Of a stretch of DNA of 64,000 nt, positions 10,415 to 58,158 are shown in pieces (position 1 is the stretch's first letter; the number at the start of each line of letters is the position of its first letter). The position numbers were made by a program, and so were the translations under genes. The notes beneath the pieces were generated by a model. That model did no database searches. It was given only the letters and a program-made list of their open reading frames with translations, and was not told the origin of the DNA. Origin of the DNA: a virus (lineage: Duplodnaviria; Heunggongvirae; Uroviricota; Caudoviricetes). Location of the stretch: IMG/VR virus record IMGVR_UViG_3300035188_001315; one strand, given 5' to 3'.

Positions 10415-10484
10415 TTCCATTTATTCACAAAATGTATTATACAATAATATTTTGTAATAATTCATTTTTTTATAATTACTATTT

Positions 10485-11030: not shown

Positions 11031-11038
11031 TTTTTATT

Positions 11039-11114
11039 TGGCTGGCTAGGTAGGGCTCGAACCTACGACAGAGTGATTAACAGTCACTTGATCTACCAAC
11101 TGATCTACTAGCCA
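11039..11114 (-). tRNA. tRNA-Asn (GUU), copy B
   Basis: Identical to 9362-9437 including about 12 bp of each flank. Confidence 0.75.
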
Positions 11115-14823: not shown

Positions 14824-14837
14824 GGAATAGGTAAAAA

Positions 14838-23107: not shown

Positions 23108-23192
23108 GATAAGTGAATTTCATAAGTGACTGATTTTTCAACATAACATTATTATTCTTTGTGTTTTAAATCAGTCACTTATGAAATTCATC
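23108..23192. promoter_or_regulatory. 26-bp perfect inverted repeat pair in divergent start region
   Basis: tgaatttcataagtgactgattt ... aaatcagtcacttatgaaattca, arms about 35 bp apart, between the leftward and rightward gene blocks. Confidence 0.55.
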
Positions 23193-31585: not shown

Positions 31586-32443
31586 ATGAAAAAATTATTA
31601 CTGACTCTTATGTTATTATCTCCGTTAACTTTAGTAAGTTGTAGTAAAGTTCCTGCAGGTACAGTAGGGATTAAAGTGCATTTACTAGGTGGTGATAAAG
31701 GTGTAGATACACAAGAACTATCACCTGGGTTGTATTGGATTGGTATGAATGAAGATTTATATACATTTCCAACATTTACACAAAATTATACCTGGACTAA
31801 AGATGATAAAGAAGGTAGCCCAAACGATGAATCCATTACTTTCCAAACGAAAGAAGGTTTAAGTGCTAACGCAGATATTGGTATTTCGTACCACATTCAA
31901 CCTGAAAAAACCTCTGTACTATTTCAAAAATATAGAAAAGGTGTTCGAGAAATTACGGATGTATATATTCGCAACATGGTTCGAGATTCAATCAATATTG
32001 AAGCAAGTACCCAATTAATTGAATCTGTGTATGGTTCTGGAAAAGCTGATCTAATTACTAATACTGAAAAACGTATTCAACATGAATTATTAGATACTGG
32101 CATTGTATTAGAACATCTATATTGGATTGGTGAAATTAGATTACCTCCATCCGTGGTTGCCTCTTTAACCAATAAGGTAAATGCATCCCAAATTTCACAA
32201 CAAAAACAACAGGAAATTGAACAGGCCAAAGCAGATGCATTAAAAGCTCAGGCGGTTGCAGAAGGGGAAGCGAATGCTAAGTTAACACTAGCTCGTGCTG
32301 ATGCTGAAGCAATTAGATTGCGTGGTGAAGCAATCAAAAATAACCCAAGTGTAGTTCAGTTAAACGCAATTGAACGATGGGATGGACACTTACCACAAAT
32401 CACTTCTGGTGCAACCCCTTTTGTGGATTTAACCAAAAAATAA
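31586..32443 (+). CDS. SPFH/band-7 (stomatin/HflKC-like) domain lipoprotein
   Basis: Lipobox LTLVSC; C-terminal Ala/Glu/Gln-rich coiled coil typical of SPFH proteins. Confidence 0.6.
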   Translation: MKKLLLTLMLLSPLTLVSCSKVPAGTVGIKVHLLGGDKGVDTQELSPGLYWIGMNEDLYTFPTFTQNYTWTKDDKEGSPNDESITFQTKEGLSANADIGISYHIQPEKTSVLFQKYRKGVREITDVYIRNMVRDSINIEASTQLIESVYGSGKADLITNTEKRIQHELLDTGIVLEHLYWIGEIRLPPSVVASLTNKVNASQISQQKQQEIEQAKADALKAQAVAEGEANAKLTLARADAEAIRLRGEAIKNNPSVVQLNAIERWDGHLPQITSGATPFVDLTKK

Positions 32444-37155: not shown

Positions 37156-38079
37156 ATGGAACAAAAATCTTTCAAAATTGCCTTTATAAGTGATGTACAT
37201 GTGGATAGTTATGTGCGTAATGATACTCATTCACCAAGTACAGTTGAAAAACTAATTGACACATTCATTGATACTCACCTGCAATTAGAATCTGCAGACA
37301 TATTAGTGATCGCCGGTGATATTAGTCATTATGTTGAATTAAGTCAGTTATTTTTTAAGGTATTGGTTGAAAGAAAACTATTCAAAAAGATTTTTGTTAC
37401 TTTTGGCAATCATGATCTTTATATGTGTACACAAATGGATATGACACAATATAAAACCTCCTGGGATAAGATATTAGATCTTAAAAGAGTTTGTGCCTCC
37501 TTTGACGGTATAGAATTTTTAGATGGTGGTATTATCGATGTTGATGGGGTGTCGATCGGTGGATGTGGTTGCTGGTACGATTTTACTTATGGGTATTCGC
37601 AGTTTGGTTTGAATAAATTTCAAATGATGCATAAGTGGAAAGATCATATCAATGATGCAAACTATATCAAAGGAACAGATAGTCCAACAGAAATAAACGA
37701 TAGTCGTACATCCTCATTAGGTGAATGGGGCTATAGAAAAATCAAACAATATTCATTCGATCCAATAAAATTCTTTGAAACGGAAAAACTGAAATTGGAA
37801 GCAATAATTGAAAAATGTGATATTTTTGTTTCACATGTTGGTCCCGTAGTTCCCGATACATTACGACCTGAATATCAAACACCTGTCACGGGGTGTTTTT
37901 ATTTTGATGGGTTACAATATTTAAATGCTGAAAAAGCCCCAAAATTATGGATATTCGGACATACACATGATTCGTATAATTTTAAAATTAACAACACGAC
38001 TTTAATGTGTAACCCCCTAGGTTATAAATCCGAAAATAAAAACACTGTGGTTGCAACAGTTGATTACTTCGAATTGTGA
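37156..38079 (+). CDS. calcineurin-like metallophosphoesterase
   Basis: Motifs IAFISDVHVD, VIAGDISH, GNHD. Confidence 0.65.
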   Translation: MEQKSFKIAFISDVHVDSYVRNDTHSPSTVEKLIDTFIDTHLQLESADILVIAGDISHYVELSQLFFKVLVERKLFKKIFVTFGNHDLYMCTQMDMTQYKTSWDKILDLKRVCASFDGIEFLDGGIIDVDGVSIGGCGCWYDFTYGYSQFGLNKFQMMHKWKDHINDANYIKGTDSPTEINDSRTSSLGEWGYRKIKQYSFDPIKFFETEKLKLEAIIEKCDIFVSHVGPVVPDTLRPEYQTPVTGCFYFDGLQYLNAEKAPKLWIFGHTHDSYNFKINNTTLMCNPLGYKSENKNTVVATVDYFEL

Positions 38080-40899: not shown

Positions 40900-40935
40900 A
40901 ATAAATGGTAAATTTAATTTTTTTTGGAGGTAATT

Positions 40936-41604
40936 ATGAAAAAATATCCTAGAACATATCATTTACCTTTTAGTCCAGAGGTTCATAGTGATGATAAAAT
41001 TTGTGATTTGGGTGATTTAAATCGTATAATTGATGAAAAAATTGAAGTAGTTATCTTAGTTAAGCTAGATGGTGGTAATGCATGTTTATCAAAAGATGGA
41101 GTTTTTGCAAGAACACACGCACAAGAAACTTCCTGTCCAACGTTTGATTTTATAAAAAATGTGCATTATTATCAAAATTTAAATGACTTAACTGAACAAA
41201 ATTTAAAAATTTTTGGTGAAAATATGTTCGCAGTGCACTCAATTGTGTACGAAAATCTCAAAGATTATTTTTATGTTTTCAATATTTTGGACGAAAATTC
41301 AAATAATTTTTTAAGTCATGATGAAGTTGATGAATGGGCTACAGCCCACAAAATGCAAGTGGTTCCAAAAATTTACGAAGGGGTGATTCCTTCTTTGACA
41401 TGGTTAGAAAAATATTTGGCACTGATGTTGTCAAAAAATGACCTTGGTGGTCCGCGAGAAGGATTTGTTATTCGCACAAAAAAAGCATTTTCAAGTGATG
41501 ATTTTTCAAAAAATGTGTTCAAATATGTTAGAAAAGATCACGTACAAGACAAAAATAATCACTGGTCACGTAACTGGGTTCAGCAACCAAAATTAGTAAA
41601 GTGA
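40936..41604 (+). CDS. RNA ligase-like nucleotidyltransferase
   Basis: N-terminal KKYPRTYHLPFSPE signature and KLDGGN (motif I KxDG). GGAGG RBS. Confidence 0.55.
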   Translation: MKKYPRTYHLPFSPEVHSDDKICDLGDLNRIIDEKIEVVILVKLDGGNACLSKDGVFARTHAQETSCPTFDFIKNVHYYQNLNDLTEQNLKIFGENMFAVHSIVYENLKDYFYVFNILDENSNNFLSHDEVDEWATAHKMQVVPKIYEGVIPSLTWLEKYLALMLSKNDLGGPREGFVIRTKKAFSSDDFSKNVFKYVRKDHVQDKNNHWSRNWVQQPKLVK

Positions 41605-41812
41605 AATTCTTGGAGGAAAAATGCAAGCATATGGGTTAAAAAGGTTCCTAAGTGTAAGAAAAAAATCTACAAAACGACATTGGAAACATGTTGCTAGAGC
41701 CTCTGTAAAAAAAATAATTTGTGAAAATTTTTAATTTTTTTTGGAAAAAACTCTTGACAATTGAGAATATTTTTGCTATAATAACCCATCAATCAAATAA
41801 AGGAAATTGAAA

Positions 41813-42901
41813 ATGAAACGAGTAATCAAATATTCAAGTATCGAACAGTTCAACCAAGTTATTCGTACTGTAAAAGAACGTGCAGCATTTATGTATTTTG
41901 ATGAAGAAACACAAAAAGCTGTGTTTGATCCTGCACCTAACTATCCAGTAGTATTAGCTAAAGTTACTGAAAAAATTCACGGTACTAATGGTTCGATTTG
42001 TTTTTCTAATCCAGATGGTTTTTGGGTTCAATCTAGAACTAATATTATTACCCCAGAATCCGATAATGCGTCATGTGCGTCGTACGCCATGAAAAATAAA
42101 GATGAATGGTTATCGATCGTAAACTCTTTAGCGACCGAGTATAATATCGACCTAGATAATAACATTATCGTGATGTATTTTGAATGGTGTGGTGATGGCA
42201 TTCAGAAAAAAACTGCGTTAACTGGTACGTCAGATAAAATGGCAATTATTTTTAGTCATTTTAAAGTGGAACCAATTGATGACGTCGATGAAGATGATGT
42301 GGGATCAGTGCAGTCGAATTGGTTTGAAACAAAAGTAGGTGATAAATGGGTTTCTTCACCTGAAGCTAACATTTTCAATATCAACGATTTCCCAACTTAT
42401 GAATTCACAATCGATTTTAATAAACCATTAATGGTTCAAAATGAGATGATCTCGTTGGTTAAAGAAGTAATTGAACCTGCTTCACCAGTTGGCAAGAAAT
42501 TCGGTTTTGATGCAAACATTGGTGAAGGAATCGTAGTTACATTTATTTTTAAAGACAGATTATATAAATTCAAGGTAAAAGGTGAGGCTCACACAACTTC
42601 TAAAGTAAAAACGTTGAATAGAGTTGATGATGAAAAATTGCAAAAAATTCAGGATATTGCTCAGAAAGTTTCACCGGTCTGGAGACTTGAACAAATGTTT
42701 GATTTGGCAATTGATGCCTTAAATGGTGGTAAACCCGATATGACCAAAATGGGTGATTTCATTAGACTGATTTCTAATGATATTATCAAGGAAGAAATTG
42801 ATATTATCATTGATGCAGGTTTAGAACACAAAACCATTATGCCTGTTGTTTCTACAATTGCCAGACAGTTCTTTAAAGAAAAATGTCTAGAATCTGAATG
42901 A
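41813..42901 (+). CDS. Rnl2-family RNA ligase-like protein
   Basis: EKIHGTN matches T4 Rnl2 motif I (KIHGTN). Promoter at about 41752; terminator at 42912-42941. Confidence 0.55.
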   Translation: MKRVIKYSSIEQFNQVIRTVKERAAFMYFDEETQKAVFDPAPNYPVVLAKVTEKIHGTNGSICFSNPDGFWVQSRTNIITPESDNASCASYAMKNKDEWLSIVNSLATEYNIDLDNNIIVMYFEWCGDGIQKKTALTGTSDKMAIIFSHFKVEPIDDVDEDDVGSVQSNWFETKVGDKWVSSPEANIFNINDFPTYEFTIDFNKPLMVQNEMISLVKEVIEPASPVGKKFGFDANIGEGIVVTFIFKDRLYKFKVKGEAHTTSKVKTLNRVDDEKLQKIQDIAQKVSPVWRLEQMFDLAIDALNGGKPDMTKMGDFIRLISNDIIKEEIDIIIDAGLEHKTIMPVVSTIARQFFKEKCLESE

Positions 42902-47144: not shown

Positions 47145-47373
47145 TTAAGAATAATACAACTCATTGGTGGACATGGATGTCCAAATCAGTTTATCTTGTT
47201 TGTTGGAATTTGTCAATAGGACATTAATAGTGTGAAAACCAAAGGAAATTGATGCTGGGTCACTATCCGAAATTTCTTAAACATCACCACAAAAACAGTT
47301 TAAAAAATCCTTGACATTTAGAACCCCACCTGTTATAATATCTCATCAATTAAATAATCAGTCGGAGATGAAA

Positions 47374-47619
47374 ATGAATAAAAAAATCCAAAACATTATG
47401 AAGGAATGCTACATTCCTGTAATTGATCGGGATGGTGATGGTGAGTACGATATGGAAAAATTTGCTAAATTACTTATCCTTCACTGTGCTCAGGCGGCTG
47501 AAATGGCATCACAAACAGATATGGATTCTACAGAAATCTACATCATAGAACAAATGGGATTGGGTACAGAAAATGGAGCTGTTAATTGGTATTATGATAA
47601 CAAACATTTAGTCAAGTAA
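47374..47619 (+). CDS. hypothetical protein
   Basis: ORF with GGAG RBS after promoter at about 47312. Confidence 0.4.
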   Translation: MNKKIQNIMKECYIPVIDRDGDGEYDMEKFAKLLILHCAQAAEMASQTDMDSTEIYIIEQMGLGTENGAVNWYYDNKHLVK

Positions 47620-47650
47620 TTCATAATTAATTGAAACTGGAAAAAACATT

Positions 47651-47953
47651 ATGCAAGCATACTTAGAACAATTGGTTAAAGTAAATGTACTAAAATTCAA
47701 CCAAGAAAATAACACATATGAAACCAGTAATGGGTTCAAAATCACTTTAGCTGATCATGGTTGTGAATGGAATATAGATTGTTTTTATATTAACAAGACA
47801 TCAAATAAAGTAATGGCAGTTACCGATGAATGGGATTATGATGAATGTAATGACCTCGAAAAAGAATTTTCTAACCCCGATTATTTAACCATTGAAAAAG
47901 TTGTTGAAGTAACGCTCGAACAGTTGCTTGATGAAGCTACTAACGGACAATAA
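47651..47953 (+). CDS. hypothetical acidic protein (100 aa)
   Basis: ORF. Confidence 0.45.
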   Translation: MQAYLEQLVKVNVLKFNQENNTYETSNGFKITLADHGCEWNIDCFYINKTSNKVMAVTDEWDYDECNDLEKEFSNPDYLTIEKVVEVTLEQLLDEATNGQ

Positions 47954-48018
47954 AAAAGATTGGTATTTGGAAGACGTGAAAACAGTAGTTGACCTAAACA
48001 CCGAAGAGGACAAATAGT

Positions 48019-48252
48019 ATGCCACTTAACATTCACAAAGAACACTTTCAAGGTTTGGTTAACAAGAATAAAGATCTTAGACAAACATTACAGGCTGCAG
48101 CCAAAGCTAAGATAAATGGTGATTGGTGTATTATTGAAGCAGTACCATTTGATGAAGAAATGGTCTATTGCTACAATGAAGAAACTCACGTTCAATACGC
48201 AATTCGATTTAGAGATATTGACTTTGGTAATCTCAAAACAATTTTGAAATAA
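48019..48252 (+). CDS. small protein, paralogue of 53503-53745
   Basis: Shares IIEAVPFDE-M-YCY-E ... QY-I-F block. Confidence 0.45.
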   Translation: MPLNIHKEHFQGLVNKNKDLRQTLQAAAKAKINGDWCIIEAVPFDEEMVYCYNEETHVQYAIRFRDIDFGNLKTILK

Positions 48253-48308
48253 GGATATGTACGACAGCAACAACTACTCAGGTACGTGAACTACTGCGTA
48301 AACATTAT

Positions 48309-48647
48309 GTGTTTCCGAAAACAGCTGAACTCTACACAAACAAACTCCAGAATTCAATTGGTTTAGTAACAGGTTTATTTGTGGCTACATTGTTTGACAA
48401 TGTGGTTAACGATGTTCTAGAACAAGTTGAGAGAGAAATTATCAACTCTTGTGGTATTGGTGAATCCTCAACAGCGTTTCATATTACAGCAAGAATTGTT
48501 CCGTATGAGTATAAACAAGAGTTGATAAAATTAGTTGCTGATGCGGTATCCGGTGAATTGATTAAATTAGGCTACATTGTTTCGATAGAAAAAGAATACT
48601 CAGAATACACGATTTACACACTTGAAATTGATTGGCATGAAGAATGA
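48309..48647 (+). CDS. hypothetical protein (112 aa)
   Basis: ORF. Confidence 0.45.
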   Translation: MFPKTAELYTNKLQNSIGLVTGLFVATLFDNVVNDVLEQVEREIINSCGIGESSTAFHITARIVPYEYKQELIKLVADAVSGELIKLGYIVSIEKEYSEYTIYTLEIDWHEE

Positions 48648-48679
48648 TTTAAAAACCATTTACAACCACGGAGTGAGTT

Positions 48680-48997
48680 ATGACACACGAATTAGACGTT
48701 ATTGCAAAAATTGATGGATCTACATTAGTGTTAAAAGGCCAACTGTTTGGCAAAGTTGAATACGACTTAACTGAATGGGTAGATAGCGACGACATGTCAG
48801 AACTGACGTGTGATGTTGTAGTAGACGGCGATCCACGCTATCCAACATTAGTATTGTCAACACGAGTTGGGTTTAGTTTAAGTCCACGTACAGGCAAGTT
48901 AGACCGTTGCTGTATCTGCTGTGCCTATAGTTCACGCGACTGTGTTTGCGGTGCATGGGATAACGTAGATGATTACTACAATGACGACGAGTATTAA
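48680..48997 (+). CDS. hypothetical Cys-rich protein
   Basis: C-terminal CCICCAYSSRDCVCG cluster. Confidence 0.4.
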   Translation: MTHELDVIAKIDGSTLVLKGQLFGKVEYDLTEWVDSDDMSELTCDVVVDGDPRYPTLVLSTRVGFSLSPRTGKLDRCCICCAYSSRDCVCGAWDNVDDYYNDDEY

Positions 48998-49034
48998 ACG
49001 TCTTTACAATCCAATAACACACGCAGTGAGAAAA

Positions 49035-49253
49035 ATGGCTAAAATTAACTTAGATGTAAACTTGTCAACAGAACAATTAATCGTTGCGTTAAAAGACGGA
49101 ATCGAACAATTAGAATTATACGACCACTGTACGATAGAATTAGGTGGGGACGTAGTAATTCAATTAGCATCACCCAGAGCAAAAAGGTTTAGTTTACACG
49201 CGGTAGATTGTGTTAAATATTCTTTGGCAACTGATGTAAATAGTCCTTCATAA
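49035..49253 (+). CDS. hypothetical protein
   Basis: ORF with GAGAAAAATGG RBS. Confidence 0.35.
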   Translation: MAKINLDVNLSTEQLIVALKDGIEQLELYDHCTIELGGDVVIQLASPRAKRFSLHAVDCVKYSLATDVNSPS

Positions 49254-49380
49254 TCTAATAACACACGGTGATGAAAATGCAAACTTTTTGAGTGTGTATT
49301 AAAAAATTGTTAAAAAAGTGCTTGACAAACTTGCCAAAGTAAAGTATAATAATTCATACTTAATTAAACGGAGAAAAAAA

Positions 49381-49587
49381 ATGATAGACGCAACTGGTAA
49401 AGAATTACAAATTGGTGATAAGGTTGTAACTAATCAGAATGATATTCGATTAGTTGTTGGTATTGTTGAAAGTTTCACTGAAGGTTTTACTGCACAGAAA
49501 GTCAAAATTAGATTAACATCCATATCAGGTGAGTATAGCGATTATACCTGTTTAAAATTCCCTGATCAATGTGCAAAAGTAGATTAA
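49381..49587 (+). CDS. hypothetical protein (68 aa)
   Basis: First gene carrying the conserved promoter/leader cassette (aaaaagtgcTTGACA ... TATAAT ... catacttaat ... cGGAGA ... ATG). Confidence 0.45.
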   Translation: MIDATGKELQIGDKVVTNQNDIRLVVGIVESFTEGFTAQKVKIRLTSISGEYSDYTCLKFPDQCAKVD

Positions 49588-49632
49588 AAAAGTGCTTGCT
49601 TTGTTCAAGCGGATAAGGTATAATGAATCATA

Positions 49633-49792
49633 ATTAAATTAAACGCTTTCAGGACGGCTTTGCTGGTGACCGAATCCAGCTTAACGATAGTTTGGCGAGT
49701 AGGGTGGTTCCTATGGTCTGGACTAATCGGGATACCATACTGCTGACCACAGTTACTGGCGAAAACCCAGTGCCGTCCTGAAAGCGTTTCTA
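49633..49792 (+). ncRNA. GC-rich structured leader RNA closed by a 15-bp perfect stem
   Basis: cgctttcaggacggc at 49636-49650 pairs with gccgtcctgaaagcg at 49775-49789. The ~120 nt between are about 50 percent GC with internal hairpins (GCUGG ... CCAGC, UAUGGU ... ACCAUA). Transcribed from the TATAAT at about 49617. Confidence 0.45.
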
Positions 49793-49808
49793 CAATAGCG
49801 GAGGGAAA

Positions 49809-49964
49809 ATGAATAATGAATTGCGACAAGATGTACTTAGATTAAAAGACGAGTTGTCTAAACGAGCATTTGATGAAAATCAAGAAGTCAAAAATAGCGA
49901 TTTGGCTGAGGTGGTTTGGAAATTAAATAGTTGCCTTGGCCAAGGCTATCCTAGAAAAAAATAA
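49809..49964 (+). CDS. hypothetical protein (51 aa)
   Basis: Short ORF with GGAGGGAAA RBS immediately after the structured leader. Confidence 0.35.
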   Translation: MNNELRQDVLRLKDELSKRAFDENQEVKNSDLAEVVWKLNSCLGQGYPRKK

Positions 49965-49977
49965 TAGCGGCCGGGAA

Positions 49978-50190
49978 ATGAATATAAAAAATAAATTTAT
50001 CGAGAATACATTTTTGTTTATTGTGATACATTTGTATTGTTTAATTGCTATGCCTTGGCATATCTATCAAATAAAACAGCGAGATAAACAAAACCAAAAA
50101 TCACAAATTACAAAAGAAATGATGGATAAAAAAATTCAAGATTTAAATAAATTTTACGGTAAAAAGTGCTTGACAAACTCGACAAAGTAA
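49978..50190 (+). CDS. small membrane protein
   Basis: TM helix; 3 prime end runs into next promoter. Confidence 0.3.
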   Translation: MNIKNKFIENTFLFIVIHLYCLIAMPWHIYQIKQRDKQNQKSQITKEMMDKKIQDLNKFYGKKCLTNSTK

Positions 50191-50224
50191 AGTATAATGA
50201 ATCATAATTAAAGAGGAGAGGAAA

Positions 50225-50482
50225 ATGGCTAGAGAAACCACTCAACAATATATCGATAGATATTGGAGAAAAGTGTTTAATAAATCTACAACTAAAGATA
50301 GATTAATTGAAATGGGATTAAAAATTGATCAACATGAGTTCAACCTACAAAGACTTAACAGTCGTGTTAAGTCACTGGTAACTGTTTTAGATGATGTAGG
50401 TAAATTACTCGAAGAACAAATGTCTTTGTTAAATAAAGCCGAGACTCATATAGATAATGCAATAAAAATTTTACAGGAATGA
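50225..50482 (+). CDS. hypothetical coiled-coil protein (85 aa)
   Basis: ORF after cassette promoter at about 50170, RBS GAGGAGAGG. Confidence 0.45.
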   Translation: MARETTQQYIDRYWRKVFNKSTTKDRLIEMGLKIDQHEFNLQRLNSRVKSLVTVLDDVGKLLEEQMSLLNKAETHIDNAIKILQE

Positions 50483-50596
50483 TGGTTTTATCAGTGGTAA
50501 TGTGGATGATGAATTTTGGTGCGGTCATGAATCTGGAGAGATTCAATTGGTGAGTGATGTGCTAAGTGAACGTGGTATTACCTGATGGGAGGAATA

Positions 50597-50827
50597 ATGT
50601 CCGAAACAGCGTTTCTAATATGTTGGATGATTGTAGGTTTAGTAATTGTAGACTTAATATTTCAGTATCTAGATAATGTGAATGACCTAATTAAAAAACG
50701 ATGGTTGAGAATCACTATAAAAAGTATTGGATTAGTAGCCTGGCCATTTTATCTTATGCTAATAGGTGTAGGTGTGGCAATTACGTTCATCTTAGAAAGT
50801 GATATTTTTAAAAGATTCTTTGAATAA
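50597..50827 (+). CDS. small membrane protein
   Basis: Two TM helices; GGGAGG RBS. Confidence 0.45.
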   Translation: MSETAFLICWMIVGLVIVDLIFQYLDNVNDLIKKRWLRITIKSIGLVAWPFYLMLIGVGVAITFILESDIFKRFFE

Positions 50828-50901
50828 ACTTTTAAAAACTCTTGTCATTCAATGTTGGTTGTAATATAATAATTCTTATTTAATAACATCGGAGATAAAA
50901 A

Positions 50902-51036
50902 ATGAAAGATTTTCAAACAGAAATTCATTTGATGTTCACTGTTGGTGGATGCACAATGGCACAGATTGCCGCCTCACAAGGTTTAACCCTAGATGAAGTG
51001 GAAAACATTATTAAATTCATGTCATCATTGGGTTAA
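50902..51036 (+). CDS. hypothetical protein (44 aa)
   Basis: Short ORF after cassette-type promoter at about 50838 with cGGAGAtaaaaaATG leader. Confidence 0.3.
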   Translation: MKDFQTEIHLMFTVGGCTMAQIAASQGLTLDEVENIIKFMSSLG

Positions 51037-51038
51037 GT

Positions 51039-51182
51039 ATGAATTTCACCCAGGCAGAAATAGATCTAATTAAATCGGCTATACAATATACTATGGAGCA
51101 TGGGTATGTATGGCGAGATGAAGAAGAAGAACGAGAATACCAAAATTTTAAAAAACTGTTAGATAAATTGAACACCAATTAA
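51039..51182 (+). CDS. hypothetical protein (47 aa), paralogue of 53286-53438
   Basis: Both share a conserved ML(E/M)xGY aromatic core and a C-terminal YQxxxxLLD block. Confidence 0.3.
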   Translation: MNFTQAEIDLIKSAIQYTMEHGYVWRDEEEEREYQNFKKLLDKLNTN

Positions 51183-51201
51183 ATAGTGTGGGGAAATTAA
51201 A

Positions 51202-51408
51202 ATGGGCATTAAAGTTAAACAAGCACCTAACATTCCAGCTATCAAACATTGTTCAGAATGTGGTTCAGAGGCTCATTTAGTAGACTGGTATTTTCGTGGT
51301 ATGTGGGCGGTAATGTGTGATTACTGTCATAACAGTAATTCAGAATGTATTAGTAAGCATCGGGCAGTGTCTCGATGGAATAGAAAACAAGAAATGGAAA
51401 TGACTTAA
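51202..51408 (+). CDS. zinc-ribbon protein, Lar-like (possible restriction alleviation)
   Basis: IKHCSECGSEAHLVD ... AVMCDYCH: CxxC ... CxxC/H arrangement as in Lar-family small proteins. Confidence 0.35.
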   Translation: MGIKVKQAPNIPAIKHCSECGSEAHLVDWYFRGMWAVMCDYCHNSNSECISKHRAVSRWNRKQEMEMT

Positions 51409-51477
51409 TATTCTTTAAATCCGGTTTAATGATTCGTACCTAATAAATAATATTGATTTTAAAATAGGTGAGGAAAT

Positions 51478-51729
51478 ATGAAAACATTTAAACAACTTAA
51501 AGAAGACTTCGAAATGATTGAACTGCAGGAATCTGGAGATATTACCGATGAGATTAAAGATGGTAAAGATCGTCGGGCAGCAAAAGGATTGTTGAACATG
51601 CATAACGATGAACTTAAAAAAAGTAGAATGGCAAAGAGCCCTACTAAAAAATCTCACCATGCAGATATGGCCGATCAGCATTTACAAGGGGTACATGATA
51701 TTCTACGAAAGCACAACCTGATTGATTAA
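51478..51729 (+). CDS. hypothetical protein (83 aa)
   Basis: ORF with GGTGAGGAAAT RBS; terminator at 51733-51760. Confidence 0.45.
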   Translation: MKTFKQLKEDFEMIELQESGDITDEIKDGKDRRAAKGLLNMHNDELKKSRMAKSPTKKSHHADMADQHLQGVHDILRKHNLID

Positions 51730-51844
51730 TTTAAAAGGGGTATTAAATATCCCTTTTTTTATGTCTTTTTTTTTAAAAAACTCTTGACATTAGTTGCCCG
51801 GTAAGGTATAATGATTCATACTTAATGAATTGGAGATAAAAAAA

Positions 51845-51931
51845 ATGAATGAAGCAGCATTGGAAAGAATGTTTGAATATGTGGTAGCTGGTACGGCGGT
51901 ATTCATTGTGGTAACAATACTCGGTATGTAA
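51845..51931 (+). CDS. 28-aa transmembrane peptide (family member 1)
   Basis: MNEAALERMFEYVVAGTAVFIVVTILGM directly after a cassette promoter/leader; paralogue at 57166. Confidence 0.35.
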   Translation: MNEAALERMFEYVVAGTAVFIVVTILGM

Positions 51932-51986
51932 AAGTTTCAATCAAAAATAAATCGGCACACTATCTTAATAAATTGGAGAAGCAAAA

Positions 51987-52244
51987 ATGATCAAATATAA
52001 AACTATAAAAAATTATGTAATCACAGAATTTGACAGAGAAGTTTCAAAACACCTAAATGATGGATGGCAAATAACCGGTGGTATTTCGGTCACTGTAAAT
52101 CTAAGTAATGAAGCTTTGTATTTCGTGGGCATGACTAAAACCGAAGTAGAAGAAAAAGAAACTAACCAAACTGTGTCACCTATTACCACACAACAACGTG
52201 ATACGATGTTGGCTGGAATAACCACTAATCGTAGATACCTATAA
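51987..52244 (+). CDS. DUF1737-like small phage protein
   Basis: MIKYKTIKNY ... EFDREVSKHLNDGWQITGG pattern; GGAGAAG RBS. Confidence 0.5.
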   Translation: MIKYKTIKNYVITEFDREVSKHLNDGWQITGGISVTVNLSNEALYFVGMTKTEVEEKETNQTVSPITTQQRDTMLAGITTNRRYL

Positions 52245-52266
52245 CAGTCCTCTATTGGTAAACAAA

Positions 52267-52458
52267 ATGAATAAAAAATTTAATTTTGATAACAAGCAAG
52301 AATGGTTAGATGCGGTGAAAGATCTGGGTTTAAAAATATATTACTGGGGAAATAACAGCATGGAAGTGTATGACGAAAATGATAGAGTAGCGGGTAGCTG
52401 GGTTGCTGAGTTTGATTGCAACAATGGTACTAGACCTTATGGTTGGTTGAGAAGTTAA
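52267..52458 (+). CDS. hypothetical protein
   Basis: ORF. Confidence 0.4.
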   Translation: MNKKFNFDNKQEWLDAVKDLGLKIYYWGNNSMEVYDENDRVAGSWVAEFDCNNGTRPYGWLRS

Positions 52459-52492
52459 AAAGCCCAATCAAACTTATTCTGGAGATAGAAAA

Positions 52493-52708
52493 ATGCAAGT
52501 AACTAAAAATACCACTTACCACATTAAATTTTGCGTTGTTAGTTTTGAAGGAACCGAAGGTGGGATGTGTGTCGATCATTTTGGTGATGAAGTAGATACA
52601 ATAGCAGAAGCTTTGGATTTGTTAGAAACTGCCAACGCTAAAGATTCCAGTGCTGATTGGAGAATCTGTTTAAATGTAGATAAAAAAATATCAAAAATAT
52701 CGGGTTAA
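52493..52708 (+). CDS. hypothetical protein (71 aa)
   Basis: ORF with GGAGATAG RBS. Confidence 0.45.
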   Translation: MQVTKNTTYHIKFCVVSFEGTEGGMCVDHFGDEVDTIAEALDLLETANAKDSSADWRICLNVDKKISKISG

Positions 52709-52742
52709 GCCCAACATCTTTATTTTTAAAAGAGGAAATTAT

Positions 52743-53057
52743 ATGGATGCTTTAAAAGCATTTGATGCAATCAAAAATGAATTTGGTGTACTAATCGCAT
52801 TGAGTGTTCTCCAAATCCACACTATTAATATGGTAACGAAAGTTAAAAAATCTGACATGGGTGCTAAATCAAATAGAACTGAAAGAGTTCTAAAGAAAGC
52901 AAAAAAATTGCTAAGTGGTATTTCGGATGACGAATACGAATTGGCATTGAAAGTGTGGTCAGTATTACATGACTGGGATGTGCGTCAAAATTTAAAAGGG
53001 CTTGGTGGTTGTGAAACCAAAACATTTTTAGAGTTGATAGTTAGTACCACACCATAG
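52743..53057 (+). CDS. hypothetical protein (104 aa)
   Basis: ORF with AGAGGAAA RBS. Confidence 0.45.
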   Translation: MDALKAFDAIKNEFGVLIALSVLQIHTINMVTKVKKSDMGAKSNRTERVLKKAKKLLSGISDDEYELALKVWSVLHDWDVRQNLKGLGGCETKTFLELIVSTTP

Positions 53058-53081
53058 TTGTACGACAGAGCAGGGGGTGAA

Positions 53082-53270
53082 ATGAAAAATCCAAATAAAA
53101 AAATGTTTGAAGTGAAATTTGAAAAATCAAACCATTTTTCAAAAAATGGGGTTGTTGCTTGTTATGATCACATTCAAGCATACGATGAAAAAGATGCTTT
53201 AATCATAGCAGTTTTAAAGCATGGTAACGGTATCACTATCACCCATGTATTAGAAGATGATAACGAATAA
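53082..53270 (+). CDS. hypothetical protein
   Basis: ORF with GGGGGTGAA RBS. Confidence 0.4.
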   Translation: MKNPNKKMFEVKFEKSNHFSKNGVVACYDHIQAYDEKDALIIAVLKHGNGITITHVLEDDNE

Positions 53271-53285
53271 AAGTTGGGTGTTGGA

Positions 53286-53438
53286 ATGAGTGATGATTTC
53301 AATGCAGAGGAACTGGACCTATTGTTTATTGCTCTTTGTCACATGCTCGAAACAGGTTATCCAGTACAGAGAGCTTCCGAGATTGAAACAGAATACCAAA
53401 AAATGTTAGATTTACTGGTAAAAGTATTTGACAAATGA
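53286..53438 (+). CDS. hypothetical protein (50 aa)
   Basis: Short ORF, paralogue of 51039-51182. Confidence 0.3.
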   Translation: MSDDFNAEELDLLFIALCHMLETGYPVQRASEIETEYQKMLDLLVKVFDK

Positions 53439-53502
53439 CTTTTGATTTGCTATAATAACCCATAGTTGAAAAAACCAGTTTAATTTTTTGGAGAATAACA
53501 AA

Positions 53503-53745
53503 ATGAATACTTTACACCATAACCACTTTGTTAATTTAGTAAAGGAAGGCAAAGATCTTAGAACGTTGTTAAAAGAAAGTAAAAAAATTAAAATGGAATC
53601 CGATGTAAATTGGTTAATCATTGAGGCAGTTCCCTTTGATGAAGATATGTTGTATTGTTATGATGAAGTAACCTTTGAACAATATGTAATCCCATTTAAA
53701 TACATCAATAAAAACACAACAGAATTTGCTACCATCGGTCAATAA
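53503..53745 (+). CDS. small protein, paralogue of 48019-48252
   Basis: Shared LIIEAVPFDEDMLYCYDE block; GGAGAATAAC RBS. Confidence 0.45.
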   Translation: MNTLHHNHFVNLVKEGKDLRTLLKESKKIKMESDVNWLIIEAVPFDEDMLYCYDEVTFEQYVIPFKYINKNTTEFATIGQ

Positions 53746-53773
53746 AATCACACAATTAAACGGAGAAAATAAA

Positions 53774-53920
53774 ATGAATATTACTCAAATGTACGAAAGT
53801 TTAATCGCTGGTGAAACCACTTTGGATCAGTTTGAAATCTGGATCTGGGAACGTGAAAATATGGCTTCATATTACACGTCTTGTGCTTTACATGAACAAA
53901 CAAATGAATTGGAAGAATAG
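53774..53920 (+). CDS. hypothetical protein
   Basis: ORF with cGGAGAaaataaaATG. Confidence 0.35.
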   Translation: MNITQMYESLIAGETTLDQFEIWIWERENMASYYTSCALHEQTNELEE

Positions 53921-53977
53921 CTTGATTTTTGTTTTCTGATGTGTTACAATGAATCATAATTTAATAGGAGATCCAAA

Positions 53978-54064
53978 ATGAAAAATGTTATTGAGTGGTT
54001 ACAATTGGTGGTTATTGGTTTAGGTATGGCGGTTGTGTTTGCTGGTTGGTGGTTGGGTTATTAA
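53978..54064 (+). CDS. 28-aa transmembrane peptide
   Basis: MKNVIEWLQLVVIGLGMAVVFAGWWLGY after TTGATT-17-TACAAT promoter and AGGAGAT RBS. Confidence 0.3.
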   Translation: MKNVIEWLQLVVIGLGMAVVFAGWWLGY

Positions 54065-54110
54065 GAAGAAGCCTCCTAGGCAATCAATCTTAATTCTCGG
54101 AGAAATAAAA

Positions 54111-54341
54111 ATGAATAACGAAGAACTACAAGCAAAGTTTGATGTGTTTGAAGATGTGGTTAGAGAACACAGTAAGCGTGAAACGGTCGGTGAAGGTGAA
54201 GTTTGTTATCCCTTTCTTGCGGGTTACCTTCCCTCGTTCTACAGTAGTTTGCTCACAGACTTAGAACTAACTAATGAACAGATTAAAAAAGTTAATGCCC
54301 GAATTGATTACCACATAGATAAATTAGTACAGATAAATTAA
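54111..54341 (+). CDS. hypothetical protein
   Basis: ORF with cGGAGAaataaaaATG. Confidence 0.4.
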   Translation: MNNEELQAKFDVFEDVVREHSKRETVGEGEVCYPFLAGYLPSFYSSLLTDLELTNEQIKKVNARIDYHIDKLVQIN

Positions 54342-54423
54342 TTCAATTATTCAAAAAAAGTTCTTGACATTGTATGGTTGATTAGGTATAATTACCCATA
54401 CTTAACAAAACGGAGAAGTAAAA

Positions 54424-54603
54424 ATGTTTAAATTAGTAATCACATTAATGTTTCACATTTCAACACCAGCTACAATCAGCACATTTGAGTACGATTCGTT
54501 AACAGACTGCTTGAAACACAGAGAAGAAAAAGTTCAAGTTCTTGATAAAATGAATCAAGAGTCAATCATCATTGGTTACAGTGCTGTTTGTGGTAAAGCG
54601 TAA
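54424..54603 (+). CDS. small secreted protein (59 aa)
   Basis: Cassette promoter at about 54364; hydrophobic N-terminus, two Cys; resembles 28652-28840. Confidence 0.35.
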   Translation: MFKLVITLMFHISTPATISTFEYDSLTDCLKHREEKVQVLDKMNQESIIIGYSAVCGKA

Positions 54604-54790
54604 TTTATTGATAAACAGGTGAAGGGAATGGTTGTTAATGAATTAATCGAAAAATTAAACCAAACCAAAAATAAAAATTTAGAAGTATTGATGGACCCCT
54701 TACAGAATCATAACTAGAAATCATAACTAAAAATCATAAGTAGGAGCATATTAATATGCTCCTTTTTTAACGACTGAGAGATCATTTACT

Positions 54791-55165
54791 ATGTTACAAT
54801 TATTCAAAACTCTACTTTCAAAACCATTATCTGCAAGTGAATTGCGAGAAAAAGCAGAAAAGGTAAAATCTAAAAATATGGTGATTGGTGCTAAAAAATT
54901 AATTGATTCAATTGATAACACCCTGATTGAAAGATCTGAACAAGGTGTTAAATCTGGAATCATTTCAGTTTATTCGTCGTTTAGTGGTTACATATTACAA
55001 GAAGGAAAATTGTGCACCCTAACGTATGTGGCGGCCGATGCTGACATTCTCAAAGTCGTAACTGCCAAATGTGTCGATGAATATCGTAGTCGGGGTTATG
55101 ATGTAACCGTTGACCGAGTTGAAAGAGAAGATGGAAAATTTCAAATCATCACTATAGCATGGTAA
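54791..55165 (+). CDS. hypothetical protein (124 aa)
   Basis: ORF after terminator hairpin at 54741-54768. Confidence 0.45.
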   Translation: MLQLFKTLLSKPLSASELREKAEKVKSKNMVIGAKKLIDSIDNTLIERSEQGVKSGIISVYSSFSGYILQEGKLCTLTYVAADADILKVVTAKCVDEYRSRGYDVTVDRVEREDGKFQIITIAW

Positions 55166-55178
55166 CGAGGTGATTAAA

Positions 55179-55577
55179 ATGGCGTATCGCTCTACCATTG
55201 CCATTGCGGTATACGGAAACAAAGGAAAATTAACCGAGTTAAAATCCTACTATTTGCGTGAAGTGGAAAAGTTAAATGATCCCGATGTGATCGATGATTT
55301 AAATACTATGATTAGTGCAAGCATCAACCATACAGGGAAACCTATTTGGGATGACGAATCCGGTGAATTTTTCTTCTACGCCACTAGGGTAATATGGTGG
55401 CCGAGGTATCCTACTGTTAGTTTATTTGATGGAATATTTGAGAAATCACAAGAGCTAGGATTGTATGCAGAATCGATTCGCATTGGAGATGAATTAAAAG
55501 ATATTGAGGTACATTATGCTGATGGTGATGCCGAATGTGAGCGTCGTTTAAAAGTGTCTAGAGCAATTTTATTTTAG
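55179..55577 (+). CDS. hypothetical protein
   Basis: ORF with GAGGTGAT RBS. Confidence 0.45.
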   Translation: MAYRSTIAIAVYGNKGKLTELKSYYLREVEKLNDPDVIDDLNTMISASINHTGKPIWDDESGEFFFYATRVIWWPRYPTVSLFDGIFEKSQELGLYAESIRIGDELKDIEVHYADGDAECERRLKVSRAILF

Positions 55578-55585
55578 CAGAAGAC

Positions 55586-55646
55586 TTGACATTTAACATC
55601 AAGTCAATTATAATAGCTCATACTTAATAAATTGGAGATACAGAAA
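55586..55646 (+). promoter_or_regulatory. promoter/leader cassette (representative of at least 12 copies)
   Basis: TTGACA (55586) - 17 - TATAAT (55609), then conserved leader agctcatacttaataaattggagatacagaaaATG. Near-identical copies at about 55918, 57600, 58182, 58914; related copies at 49321, 50170, 51784, 54364, 57095, 59866. Confidence 0.6.
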
Positions 55647-55910
55647 ATGAAAAAATTAATGGTTGCTTTGGTATTGATGGTAATCACTGGAGTGGTTGAA
55701 GCAAAAGGGTCTGCCGGTGCTGCGGGTCATGGTGGTGGTCATGCAGCATCAATCGTACATGTAGTTAGTGCGGGTCATGTAGTTACTTATGGGTCTGCCA
55801 ATAACCAATCCAATACAAATACCGGTGAATTAAAAGAGATGACAACAATCCAAAAGGTTCTTACTGGTGGAATTGTACTTTTATTTTTAGGTGCGTTTGT
55901 TAATCTTTAG
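55647..55910 (+). CDS. His-rich secreted C-terminally anchored mini-protein (family member 1)
   Basis: Signal peptide MKKLMVALVLMVITGVVEA, His-rich core GHGGGHAASIVHVVSAGHVV, C-terminal TM helix. Confidence 0.5.
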   Translation: MKKLMVALVLMVITGVVEAKGSAGAAGHGGGHAASIVHVVSAGHVVTYGSANNQSNTNTGELKEMTTIQKVLTGGIVLLFLGAFVNL

Positions 55911-55979
55911 ATCAGTACTTGACATTTAACATTAAAACAGTTATAATAAATCAAACTTAATAAATTGGAGATACAGAAA

Positions 55980-56150
55980 ATGATTAGAACTAAAGTGGAT
56001 AAATCAAAAGCCTGGTTCACAGGTGACAAAGTGTGGTTAGCACAAAATGATACTAAAACTAATCAAACCTACTTTGTTAGCAACACTGGTAACGAAATAA
56101 AAACAAGTGTACCGTGTAAAAATTATTCACAAAAACCATTTTCTTTTTAA
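55980..56150 (+). CDS. hypothetical protein
   Basis: ORF after cassette copy. Confidence 0.4.
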   Translation: MIRTKVDKSKAWFTGDKVWLAQNDTKTNQTYFVSNTGNEIKTSVPCKNYSQKPFSF

Positions 56151-56165
56151 ACCTCGGAGAAAAAA

Positions 56166-56411
56166 ATGAATATGACAGTTGCCGAGTTACTTGAAAAATT
56201 ATTAGCTAAAAATGTTTTGGTAACTTTTGAAAATGATATAGTAAATTATATTAACAATAAGTGTATTGTTAATGTCAATGGTAATATTATTAATGGGATT
56301 TTTCAATACGAAAATAAATCTATTTTCATTGAATTTGACGACCAGTCAGGTAATCAATATTATCCAGGGGAAATTGTTTCGGTTTATTTTTATCGACTAG
56401 AAGAATTATAA
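56166..56411 (+). CDS. hypothetical protein (81 aa)
   Basis: ORF with cGGAGAaaaaaATG. Confidence 0.4.
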   Translation: MNMTVAELLEKLLAKNVLVTFENDIVNYINNKCIVNVNGNIINGIFQYENKSIFIEFDDQSGNQYYPGEIVSVYFYRLEEL

Positions 56412-56489
56412 TTTTCGAGATAAGAAAGTGTTTGGCATTGTATGGTTGATTAGGTATAGTCCATCACACTATAAACCGGAGAAATGAAA

Positions 56490-56668
56490 ATGACTAATAA
56501 AATTAAATTTAAAACTATCATTAAATCTGACCATGACCATGTTTGACACCGAAGTCAACAGACACTTAAATGATGTGTGGAAATTACAGGGTAGCGTGGG
56601 CGTAGGAATTAACCCTTCTAATCGAAACTATTGCTATTCAATCGATGTTATTAAAGAGGTGGAGTAAG
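56490..56668 (+). pseudogene. frameshifted DUF1737-like paralogue
   Basis: MTNKIKFKTIIKSDHDHV-stop, then out of frame FDTEVNRHLNDVWKLQGSVG; both parts align to the 51987-52244 product. Upstream promoter degenerate (TTGGCA ... TATAGT). Confidence 0.45.
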
Positions 56669-56672
56669 CCTA

Positions 56673-56858
56673 ATGGAAAAGGATGATTTAATTGAACGTG
56701 CGGCACTAGCATTAGAAAAGGATAAAGTACGTCAATATGGTTGGTCTAAAAAAGAGTTCGAGATTTGGTGTTACTCTGATAATAGAGGAATAAAATCTTT
56801 TGCTGAGTCTAAAAAACAAGCAACAATTGTTTATGATATTATAAATGTGCTTACTTAA
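56673..56858 (+). CDS. hypothetical protein (61 aa)
   Basis: ORF. Confidence 0.4.
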   Translation: MEKDDLIERAALALEKDKVRQYGWSKKEFEIWCYSDNRGIKSFAESKKQATIVYDIINVLT

Positions 56859-56872
56859 TAACGGAGAACAAA

Positions 56873-57082
56873 ATGGCTTACACATACGCGGAATTTTGTC
56901 AATGGTTGGTATCGGGCGACAGCAACTCGCTAAGACAAGGACTCTACGTCAGTGTTGATGTTCGTAGAAATTTCTTACTAAAAGACCAAAATAAAATAAT
57001 TAGACACGGTGGCGTAATTAGTCCGGAATGGGAAAACATGGGCTCTGATGTTTATTTCGTAAAATTTGTTGGAAATGAATAA
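56873..57082 (+). CDS. hypothetical protein (69 aa)
   Basis: ORF with cGGAGAacaaaATG. Confidence 0.4.
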   Translation: MAYTYAEFCQWLVSGDSNSLRQGLYVSVDVRRNFLLKDQNKIIRHGGVISPEWENMGSDVYFVKFVGNE

Positions 57083-57165
57083 AAAAGTGCTTGACATTGT
57101 CGGAACACTAAGGTATAATGAATCATACTTAATTGAAAAGGCGTTAACGCCAAACGGAGAGAAAA

Positions 57166-57252
57166 ATGAATAACGAAATCCTAGAACAAGTGTTTGAATC
57201 TGTGTTAGCTGGAGCGTTTGTATTTATCGTTGTAACTGTTCTGAGCCTATAG
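57166..57252 (+). CDS. 28-aa transmembrane peptide (family member 2)
   Basis: MNNEILEQVFESVLAGAFVFIVVTVLSL after cassette promoter at about 57095. Confidence 0.35.
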   Translation: MNNEILEQVFESVLAGAFVFIVVTVLSL

Positions 57253-57262
57253 GAGAGACCTG

Positions 57263-57409
57263 ATGAAATATCAAGAATTTGTATTTGAAACTGCGTATGA
57301 TGCATGTGAGTTCGCCACAGAGTGTGGTGATAAATTCGTGAGATATAATGGTACCTCATGGAAAACTGAAGACGAAGGCGACTATGGCGTTGTGGTAGAA
57401 GGGGAATAA
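57263..57409 (+). CDS. hypothetical acidic protein (48 aa)
   Basis: Short ORF with GGAGAGACC RBS. Confidence 0.3.
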   Translation: MKYQEFVFETAYDACEFATECGDKFVRYNGTSWKTEDEGDYGVVVEGE

Positions 57410-57410
57410 T

Positions 57411-57605
57411 ATGCAAAGAGATTATTTAATCGATCGTATGAAACGCACGAATGCAAATGTTTTGAATTGCGTTGCTTGCTTACCGTTTTCTTTGGATTTA
57501 GACAAAGACCAACAAAAAATGATTGAAGAAATAGAATACATTTTGCTTCAGGCGTATGAACAAATTGATGATAAAATTGCTGAATATGCGTTAAAAAGTG
57601 CTTGA
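57411..57605 (+). CDS. hypothetical protein (64 aa)
   Basis: ORF; 3 prime end overlaps next cassette promoter. Confidence 0.35.
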   Translation: MQRDYLIDRMKRTNANVLNCVACLPFSLDLDKDQQKMIEEIEYILLQAYEQIDDKIAEYALKSA

Positions 57606-57662
57606 CAATCCATAACAGAACAATTATAATAGCTCATACTTAATAAATTGGAGATACAGAAA

Positions 57663-57920
57663 ATGAAAAAATTAATGGTTGCTTTGGTATTGATGGTAAT
57701 CACTGGAGTGGTTGAAGCAAAAGGGTCCACTGCTATTGCTCATGCCGGTATTGCCCATGCAACAGTTGCAAGTCATATGGTGGTTCATAATGTTAGTGGT
57801 CAAACCAATTCAACCACCACTGGTGAAAAATTATCAGATAAAGCTAGTACAACTATTACGGTTGCATTAATCTCACTTATTGCTATCGGGATAAGTGCTA
57901 TGGCTGGGTACAGTGAATAA
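57663..57920 (+). CDS. His-rich secreted C-terminally anchored mini-protein (family member 2)
   Basis: Identical signal peptide to member 1; core AIAHAGIAHATVASHMVVHNV; C-terminal TM. Confidence 0.5.
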   Translation: MKKLMVALVLMVITGVVEAKGSTAIAHAGIAHATVASHMVVHNVSGQTNSTTTGEKLSDKASTTITVALISLIAIGISAMAGYSE

Positions 57921-57975
57921 CAAAGTGTTTGACACTCTATAGTACATCAATCATAATAACTTCAGAGATAAAAAA

Positions 57976-58158
57976 ATGACTACATCCAAAACGAATGCTG
58001 AAAATAACTTGTCTGGTTTACGGGTTTTGATACACGACCGGTGCGAATGCTCTGTGCTAACCAAAGAACAAATCGAAGTATCCCCAGGTTACAGTTATTA
58101 TTGCCCACAATGTGATGAGGATCTATTTGCATTCGAAACTCAAACCGTGATAGTTTAA
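57976..58158 (+). CDS. small Cys protein (60 aa)
   Basis: CEC ... CPQC zinc-ribbon-like; promoter TTGACA-17-CATAAT upstream. Confidence 0.4.
   Translation: MTTSKTNAENNLSGLRVLIHDRCECSVLTKEQIEVSPGYSYYCPQCDEDLFAFETQTVIV

Follow-up and report, generated by a model that had tools for sequence, protein, structure and literature searches.

What is the short, GC-rich block that lies between an early promoter and a small open reading frame (ORF) in the AT-rich DNA of an uncultured phage? The stretch that we analysed, 64,000 nucleotides long and here called the window, matched nothing at the DNA level among GenBank phages. The ORF beside the block is also found on a 227.8-kb metagenome contig from ENA, and the window therefore belongs to an uncultured jumbo phage. 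High GC content in an AT-rich genome is a classic compositional signature of structured RNA. Few structured RNAs of phages beyond tRNAs, tmRNAs and introns have a known role; the ones with a role, among them pRNA, RNA anti-CRISPRs and antitoxin mimics, brought new biology to light. GC-rich intergenic regions have served as a guide to structured RNA discovery (PMC6429828, PMC8723152).

A GC-rich element closed by a perfect inverted repeat

The element is 149 nt long (49641-49789 of the window, + strand) and sharply bounded. Its ends form a closing stem, P1, in which AAACGCTTTCAGGACGGC (49641-49658) pairs with GCCGTCCTGAAAGCGTTT (49772-49789) over 18 bp without a mismatch, and the two arms are 113 nt apart. 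A first-pass annotation of this DNA had described a perfect stem of 15 bp, which thus proved to be longer. In most relatives a 19th pair, G-C, extends P1 further; these copies carry AAACGAAACGC, with an extra AAACG upstream. When the 15-mer of P1 was searched with up to two mismatches, not one of 100 dinucleotide shuffles of the window held even a single copy. A perfect 18-bp stem is therefore far beyond chance.

The GC content of the element is 0.51-0.525 over spans of 120-150 nt as compared to a mean of 0.314 for the 64-kb window, and the element is the top GC peak within these 64 kb. This bears out the GC-rich segment of about 50% noted before (52% versus a window mean of 31%). The other GC peaks in the window are coding or belong to a tRNA/tmRNA cluster, which is the sole other non-coding peak.

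Promoter, leader and downstream ORF

Upstream of the element is an early promoter that we read from the sequence at 49596-49624 (+), with a -35 box TTGCTT (49596-49601), a 17-nt spacer that holds a 5-bp palindrome (GCTTG/CAAGC) and a -10 box TATAAT (49619-49624), the whole preceded by the cassette motif AAAAAGTGC. The annotation had called this promoter consensus, a description that fits the -10 box and the upstream AAAAAGTGCTTG motif but not the -35 box, which matches at four of six positions. The promoter cassette is present in at least eight copies in the 47-58 kb part of the window, and the combination of -10 box and leader, GGTATAATGAATCATAATTAAA, is found at five sites in the window where none is expected by chance. 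Transcripts would start at about 49631 within the generic early leader GAATCATAATTAAATT (49625-49640, +), which is common to other early promoters, and the leader GAATCATAATTAAA that follows the promoter of the element also follows at least four other early promoters of the window.

The 5' end of the element lies 9-10 nt past the inferred start site and its 3' end about 10 nt before a ribosome-binding site (RBS). Since the leader of ordinary early promoters runs straight into the RBS, the element looks inserted between leader and RBS. The 3' flank CUACAAUAGC, the RBS GGAGGG (49800-49805) and the start codon (49809-49811) make up a conserved stretch (49790-49811, +) that is unpaired in the predicted fold. 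The order after the element is CTACAATAGC-GGAGGG-AAA-ATG followed by a 51-aa ORF (MNNELRQ..., 49809-49964, +), and the small ORF with its RBS reported earlier is thus confirmed, with the ATG 19 nt past the stem. This ORF is one of four alternatives that directly follow the element in relatives; it belongs to no known family and a protein homologue search found essentially no homologues. No terminator-like site was found after the element in the window sequence.

The same part of the window (47300-58000, +) has a regular layout, with the cassette AAAAAGTGCTTGACA-17 nt-TATAAT-GAATCATA(A/C)TTAA recurring at intervals of 0.5-1 kb ahead of small ORFs. In the leader of the promoter at 57084 there is a small GC hairpin, GGCGTTAACGCC (57140-57151), at the same place that the element takes in the leader of the promoter at 49596. 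The promoter of the element has two alternative spacers that each contain a palindrome: GCTTG..CAAGC, or CTTTTCTC-GTA-GAGAAAAG (49594-49610 and the contigs L123, L226 and L230). These palindromes may be operators or terminators of antisense transcription.

Predicted fold of the element

The whole element folds at -67.7 kcal/mol with a z-score of -5.1 on the + strand and -4.8 on the minus strand. The inner 113 nt alone reach z-scores of only -1.3 (+) and -0.6 (-), no better than shuffled sequence. Thus, the significance of the fold is due to the closing stem P1. The several internal hairpins described by the annotation are indeed predicted, with pair probabilities of 0.8-0.9, but have no support beyond chance.

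The predicted architecture is a four-way junction consisting of P1, UUU, P2, a 12-nt joining segment, P3, CAGUU, and P4 that abuts P1; it is the minimum-energy architecture in all six sequence variants of the element that we collected, with helix probabilities of 0.8-0.9. The 5' arm of P1, AAACGCUUUCAGGACGGC (49641-49658, +), is invariant in 6/6 variants. P2 (49662-49680, +) is predicted as a hairpin with a 5-bp stem, GCUGG/CCAGC, and a 9-nt loop, UGACCGAAU (49667-49675), which is the only hypervariable spot of the element (sites 49668, 49670 and 49674). The joining segment J2/3, UUAACGAUAGUU (49681-49692, +), is invariant and could form a mini-hairpin of 3 bp. It is followed by P3 (49693-49749, +), predicted as a long irregular hairpin with four G-U pairs, and by P4 (49755-49771, +), a predicted hairpin ACUGG-CGAAAAC-CCAGU that has no spacer to the 3' arm of P1, GCCGUCCUGAAAGCGUUU (49772-49789, +), the inverted-repeat partner of the 5' arm. 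In this model it is possible that P4 is coaxially stacked on P1.

The P3-containing interior folds at -34.4 kcal/mol on the transcribed strand versus -27.5 kcal/mol on the other strand, a difference that comes about because P3 needs four G-U pairs. The interior fold is therefore best regarded as a prediction that mildly favours the transcribed strand. In 6/6 variants the P2 loop remains complementary over 4-6 bp to (A/G)UCGG in P3, a level that 8-9% of shuffled loops also match.

The element belongs to no described RNA family

We compared the window to all 4227 Rfam families at the gathering score, and segments of 171-451 nt around the element at E<=10; the element matched none of them. Hits to MEG8_3, snR54 and RAGATH-8 were at noise level and were rejected. 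The element thus belongs to no described RNA family, and the ribozyme-like reading offered by the annotation finds no Rfam ribozyme match even at E<=10. Neither ARAGORN nor the Rfam models called it as a tRNA or tmRNA, and it lacks T-loop and D-loop sequences; its likeness to tRNA is limited to the four-way-junction topology. A likeness to 5S rRNA that we saw by eye (CCGAA..CAG, GCGAG.AGUAGGG) received no support from the 5S model. Candidates of other kinds, namely a tRNA-like RNA, 6S, Y RNA, SRP, a put-type antiterminator and an anti-CRISPR repeat mimic, had no model match either, and antitermination is not needed because promoters occur every 0.5-1 kb. Among the scanned ORFs there was no Ro/TROVE and no TnpB-like protein.

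The annotation had also raised the possibility of a riboswitch or thermosensor. A riboswitch or RNA thermometer that controls the small downstream ORF would fit the position in a 5' leader, the GC-rich fold with several helices and the ORF close behind. However, no Rfam aptamer family was matched at the gathering score or at E<=10, a perfect P1 of 18-19 bp is too stable for switching, and there is no expression platform in the form of a terminator or a helix that sequesters the Shine-Dalgarno (SD) sequence. The SD and AUG (49790-49810) are unpaired in both the minimum-energy and centroid folds, which speaks against a thermometer as well. The four ORFs found downstream of the element in different relatives are unrelated, leaving no consistent association with a pathway. 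We therefore regard this type of regulation as very unlikely.

Likeness to a retron fared still worse. If the element were a retron-type msr/msd template, the 18-bp arms would correspond to a1/a2, and the two do share inverted repeats that flank a structured non-coding segment, a feature that is not diagnostic alone. Unlike retron repeats, those of the element are longer and perfect. A search of the window's 20 ORFs of 200 aa or more, and of the small neighbours, turned up no reverse transcriptase domain, the genes after the element encode only 47-72 aa and belong to no family, and no Rfam retron family matched. A retron origin is extremely improbable on these grounds.

The element is non-coding

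Could the segment be a decayed protein-coding fragment on the minus strand, for example of an RCC1-like repeat protein? A minus-strand ORF of 73 aa does span the element, and phmmer gave weak matches (E 4e-7 to 3e-4) to RCC1 and FG-GAP repeat proteins. These are unrelated repeat families and the scores were summed over 4-6 repeats, so that we judged the matches to be spurious. An exhaustive phmmer search with the 73-aa ORF returned a single real homologue, predicted as a gene on a related contig. The 73-aa ORF itself lacks any Pfam match at E<=1, gene callers call it in only one of more than 20 contigs, and a 1-nt deletion in one relative (L007) breaks every frame. A coding origin would also leave the perfect inverted repeat unexplained. 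The degraded coding remnant that the annotation had named as an outcome speaking against an RNA was thus not encountered, and we give this origin very little weight.

The element is confined to one clade of freshwater jumbo phages

The element is confined to one clade of uncultured freshwater jumbo-phage contigs, where it is found in at least 10 contexts and always in sense orientation relative to the flanking genes. A blastn search with the element and its surroundings gave no match in GenBank phages, plasmids or E. coli, and the 185,579 species genomes of GTDB held no two-armed copy; a scan with the 18-mer gave 66 single-arm matches that are due to chance. In Desulfobacterales (L152, L203, L183 and nine other loci) stretches of 36-44 nt show 86-89% identity to the 3' end of the element, the 18-mer included; they lie within a conserved sdhB/frdB-like coding region, and we judged the similarity coincidental. 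IMG/VR was scanned with exact seeds (the stem 15-mer, a central 19-mer, a loop/junction pattern with free stem positions and a two-arm pattern) and yielded only two true copies; two other loci, L120 and L121, were chance high-GC repeats. The two-arm pattern applied to metagenomes picked up three true copies along with two chance matches. A covariance model (R1) that we built from five copies and ran on 53 loci of related phages found near-identical copies only, and look-ups of neighbour proteins and homologues added more contexts but no new divergent variant. Covariance-model search showed a single copy of the element per contig or per 64-kb window.

Relatives in which the neighbouring 130-aa protein is at most 82% identical lack the element, and the genes there simply abut. 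Because both closer and more distant relatives simply lack it, the element is dispensable.

The contexts, which proved the most informative result, vary on both sides. Upstream there are three or four types of gene, with products of 68 aa (DUF7205), 130 aa, 116 aa (a divergent gene) or 60 aa, and three types of promoter spacer. Downstream are four unrelated ORFs (the 51-aa MNNELRQ, a 70-aa MNIKNKF, a 49-aa MRNLIID and MPKHW). In one contig (L244) the element is intercistronic, with no promoter between the upstream ORF and the element, so the promoter is not an obligatory part of the conserved unit, which is ATTAAACG + element + CYAMAATARCGGAG. The element is thus independent of its neighbour genes and of the promoter. 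Given four ORFs, three or four upstream genes and one promoterless context, it is not a regulator dedicated to one gene, and the varied neighbours together with the promoterless context argue against a gene-specific cis-regulator.

An influence in cis that is not tied to a particular gene is a different matter. The element might be a leader or intercistronic element that insulates, stabilises or processes the mRNA that follows, with no product acting in trans. In phage T7, RNase III sites between early genes provide a precedent for processing in cis that gives a defined 5' end upstream of an RBS. The element always lies 10-11 nt before an RBS and ORF, offers RNase III a suitable long perfect helix and stands between cistrons in L244, and ordinary early leaders have nothing at that place or a small hairpin such as the one at 57140-57151. 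Yet a processing site needs the helix alone, and the 113-nt interior matches the stem in its invariance. Dozens of early leaders elsewhere in this genome have no such block, and the downstream ORFs are unrelated. We consider a purely cis-acting element unlikely.

Sequence variants and recombination around the element

The element is carried by about 25 contigs from assemblies of JGI, ENA and Logan, which reduce to six sequence variants. In element numbering (1 = 49641) the variable sites are 28 (G/A), 30 (C/A) and 34 (A/T), all in the P2 loop; 82 (49722), where a loop-closing A at the tip of P3 is deleted in L007; 86 (49726), an A/G change in the internal loop of P3; and 95 (49735), a C/U change that turns a G-C pair of P3 into G-U. 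Two contigs (L207 and L215) have three substitutions in the P2 loop and the L123 type has one, in each case with the stem intact. Of the six variable sites, three fall in the P2 loop and one in an internal loop, one is a loop-closing deletion and one exchanges G-C for G-U.

There is no covariation, as no compensatory change was seen among the six variants with their six variable sites only. The annotation had listed missing covariation support as counter-evidence to a structured RNA; its absence here is trivial given that the variants are too similar for such a test. When substitutions were placed at random, an equally mild summed energy cost arose in 10-15% of trials (P ~0.10-0.15). By our own count, four of five substitutions are energy-neutral as compared to a background of 28% (P ~0.02), a result that is not robust, and the three loop changes may be one event.

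Between contigs the element is 98.7-100% identical, while the upstream gene is 85-98% and the promoter region 79-100% identical. The ORF directly downstream is 97-100% identical where it is shared, and identity drops to 53-83% only beyond that ORF. The region around the element is a recombination mosaic in which the element stands out as the constant pivot, with upstream and downstream modules recombined around it. From sequence comparison, the high identity of the element can reflect recent cassette exchange as well as selection.

These observations bring up selfish or functionless DNA, either a captured foreign fragment or a MITE-like insertion, that would ride along at a cassette junction or itself provide the homology for recombination between co-infecting relatives. 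Such an origin would account for the terminal inverted repeats, the foreign-looking GC content, the restriction to one narrow clade with sister lineages that lack the element, the many combinations of upstream and downstream modules around it, and high identity that extends to the adjacent ORF before its sharp drop. Shuffling of this type is documented for the PeSL cassettes of T4-type phages, which are short composites of terminator and promoter that recur many times in a genome (PMC2839356, PMC4122927). The resemblance lies in the repeated early-promoter cassettes that flank small variable genes and in the position of the element at a junction of gene shuffling among relatives; the element differs from PeSLs in that it is single-copy, 149 nt long, GC-rich, located downstream of the promoter and found in a promoterless context too.

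Correia elements of Neisseria and ERIC of enterobacteria are MITEs of about 100-150 bp that are co-transcribed and form long hairpins that RNase III can cut. The element shares their length and terminal inverted repeats. Unlike them, it has no target-site duplication (in 10 contexts there was only a tandem AAACG, on the 5' side alone), is present once per contig or 64-kb window, has an invariant interior and is always in sense orientation, and neither a copy nor the same inverted repeat was found in 185,579 species genomes, plasmids or E. coli. Its substitutions also avoid the predicted stems. On balance, an origin as selfish or functionless DNA is unlikely, to about the same degree as a purely cis-acting element.

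A structured RNA domain with a putative processing helix as the favoured explanation

The reading that we favour, with a probability of about 40%, is that the element is a structured RNA domain of early transcripts whose long helix is an RNase III-type processing helix that releases a four-way-junction RNA. The structured and possibly processed RNA suggested by the first-pass annotation remains in this form the best explanation; this part of the suggestion agrees with the composition and strand of the element and with its unchanging orientation relative to transcription, and the riboswitch, retron and ribozyme-like versions fall away.

We infer that the element is transcribed right after an early promoter in the window and most relatives, or between two cistrons in L244. 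The ends would then pair into a perfect helix of 18-19 bp, which with P4 stacked on it may form a duplex of about two turns. P1 would then be cut by an RNase III-type nuclease specific for double strands, or would at least clamp both ends together. Cutting would release an RNA of about 115-150 nt with the four-way junction P1-P2-P3-P4 as a discrete product and leave a downstream mRNA that starts a few nucleotides before its own RBS. The selected unit would be the RNA itself and not any particular downstream gene. With no terminator, a free RBS and a possible intercistronic site, processing would be the simplest, and perhaps the only, route to a discrete RNA.

An uninterrupted helix of 18-19 bp is a classic RNase III substrate, and RNase III separates the early mRNAs of T7 and excises rRNAs from their precursors. 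The element has two features of such a signal, namely 18-19 uninterrupted pairs with P4 abutting and a position in a leader (window) or between cistrons (L244). Like the early T7 sites R0.3-R1.3 and the precursor stems of 16S and 23S rRNA, its helix spans about two turns and is built from sequences on either side of a unit in a longer early or polycistronic transcript. As with the T7 helices, it is located in a leader or between cistrons, shortly before the following RBS; as with the 16S and 23S precursors, it encloses a structured RNA, which by analogy would be set free by the cut. In T7 the sites are simple hairpins, about 60 nt long and with an internal loop. The helix of the element differs in being perfect, in enclosing a conserved 113-nt domain of several predicted helices and in occurring once per 64 kb. 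In kind, small structured RNAs or leader modules of phages that are closed by a helix of the RNase III type are thus not unprecedented.

Another parallel is the pRNA of phi29 (RF00044), also a phage RNA of about 120-170 nt from an early promoter with ends paired in a long helix below a multi-helix junction. Two loops of the element could pair over 4-6 nt in all six variants, as would be needed for oligomerisation of the pRNA kind, and 8-9% of shuffled loops reach this level. Unlike pRNA, the element had no covariance-model match at E<=10 and is located in a jumbo phage, not a phi29-like podovirus.

A more far-reaching version of the favoured reading, in which the element represents a new class of trans-acting phage RNA that is freed from transcripts early in infection by cutting of the closing helix, is unlikely. 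Such an RNA might serve to decoy or to scaffold, for instance, a host defence that targets RNA or an RNA-processing factor; the phage itself also encodes tRNAs, a tmRNA, two RNA ligases and a kinase/HD repair enzyme. Alternatively, it might self-associate by pairing of the variable P2 loop with the internal loop of P3. The case for a function at the RNA level is circumstantial and the distribution of the element is very narrow. What makes it worth attention is that it is a small, sharply bounded orphan in an ecologically interesting phage group. Should it be only a recombination linker or processing site, it would still provide a clean natural 5'-leader insulator module that moves between gene cassettes.

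Gene content of the phage

The window contains an AmoC/PmoC-family gene (3400-4322, -; Pfam PF04896, E = 3e-112) that is interrupted near its 3' end by a group I intron (3400-3620), with a plausible exon 2 below 3399. Freshwater phages with pmoC or amoC have been described (PMC7674155; bioRxiv 10.64898/2026.06.18.733297). The amoC-phages of the latter report have 36-39% GC and 1-6 tRNAs and its text mentions no intron, whereas the window has 31% GC and at least 10 tRNAs. Because they carry an AmoC/PmoC-family gene, the phages may infect ammonia or methane oxidisers.

The tRNA genes, at least 10 in number, form a cluster (8714-11114) that includes a tmRNA gene (10567-10946, -) found by Rfam with 124 bits and missed by ARAGORN. 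Within the cluster a second group I intron (10072-10266; region 10000-10330, -) splits a tRNA gene into a 5' half, GTCCTCTTAGCTCAGCTGGATAGAG, and a 3' half that ends with GGTTCGAATCCACTAGAGGATGCCA. With the intron removed ARAGORN calls a tRNA, the identity of which varies with the precise junction.

At 14655-16058, four to five iterons, TATGTGCAAAATAATG, directly precede a gene for a Rep3-type (plasmid-like) replication initiator, and this site is likely to be a replication origin. An RNA-repair kit is encoded at four places (12859-13995, -; 37156-38079; 40924-41604; 41807-42901) and comprises an HD-domain and kinase protein, a metallophosphoesterase and two RNA ligases. Other genes encode a PAS-HisKA-HATPase histidine kinase (6487-7653, -), a Sir2-family protein (23276-24079) and an SPFH/Band 7 protein (31586-32443). 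A perfect inverted repeat of 23 bp, with arms 31 nt apart, lies between divergently oriented genes at 23114-23190.
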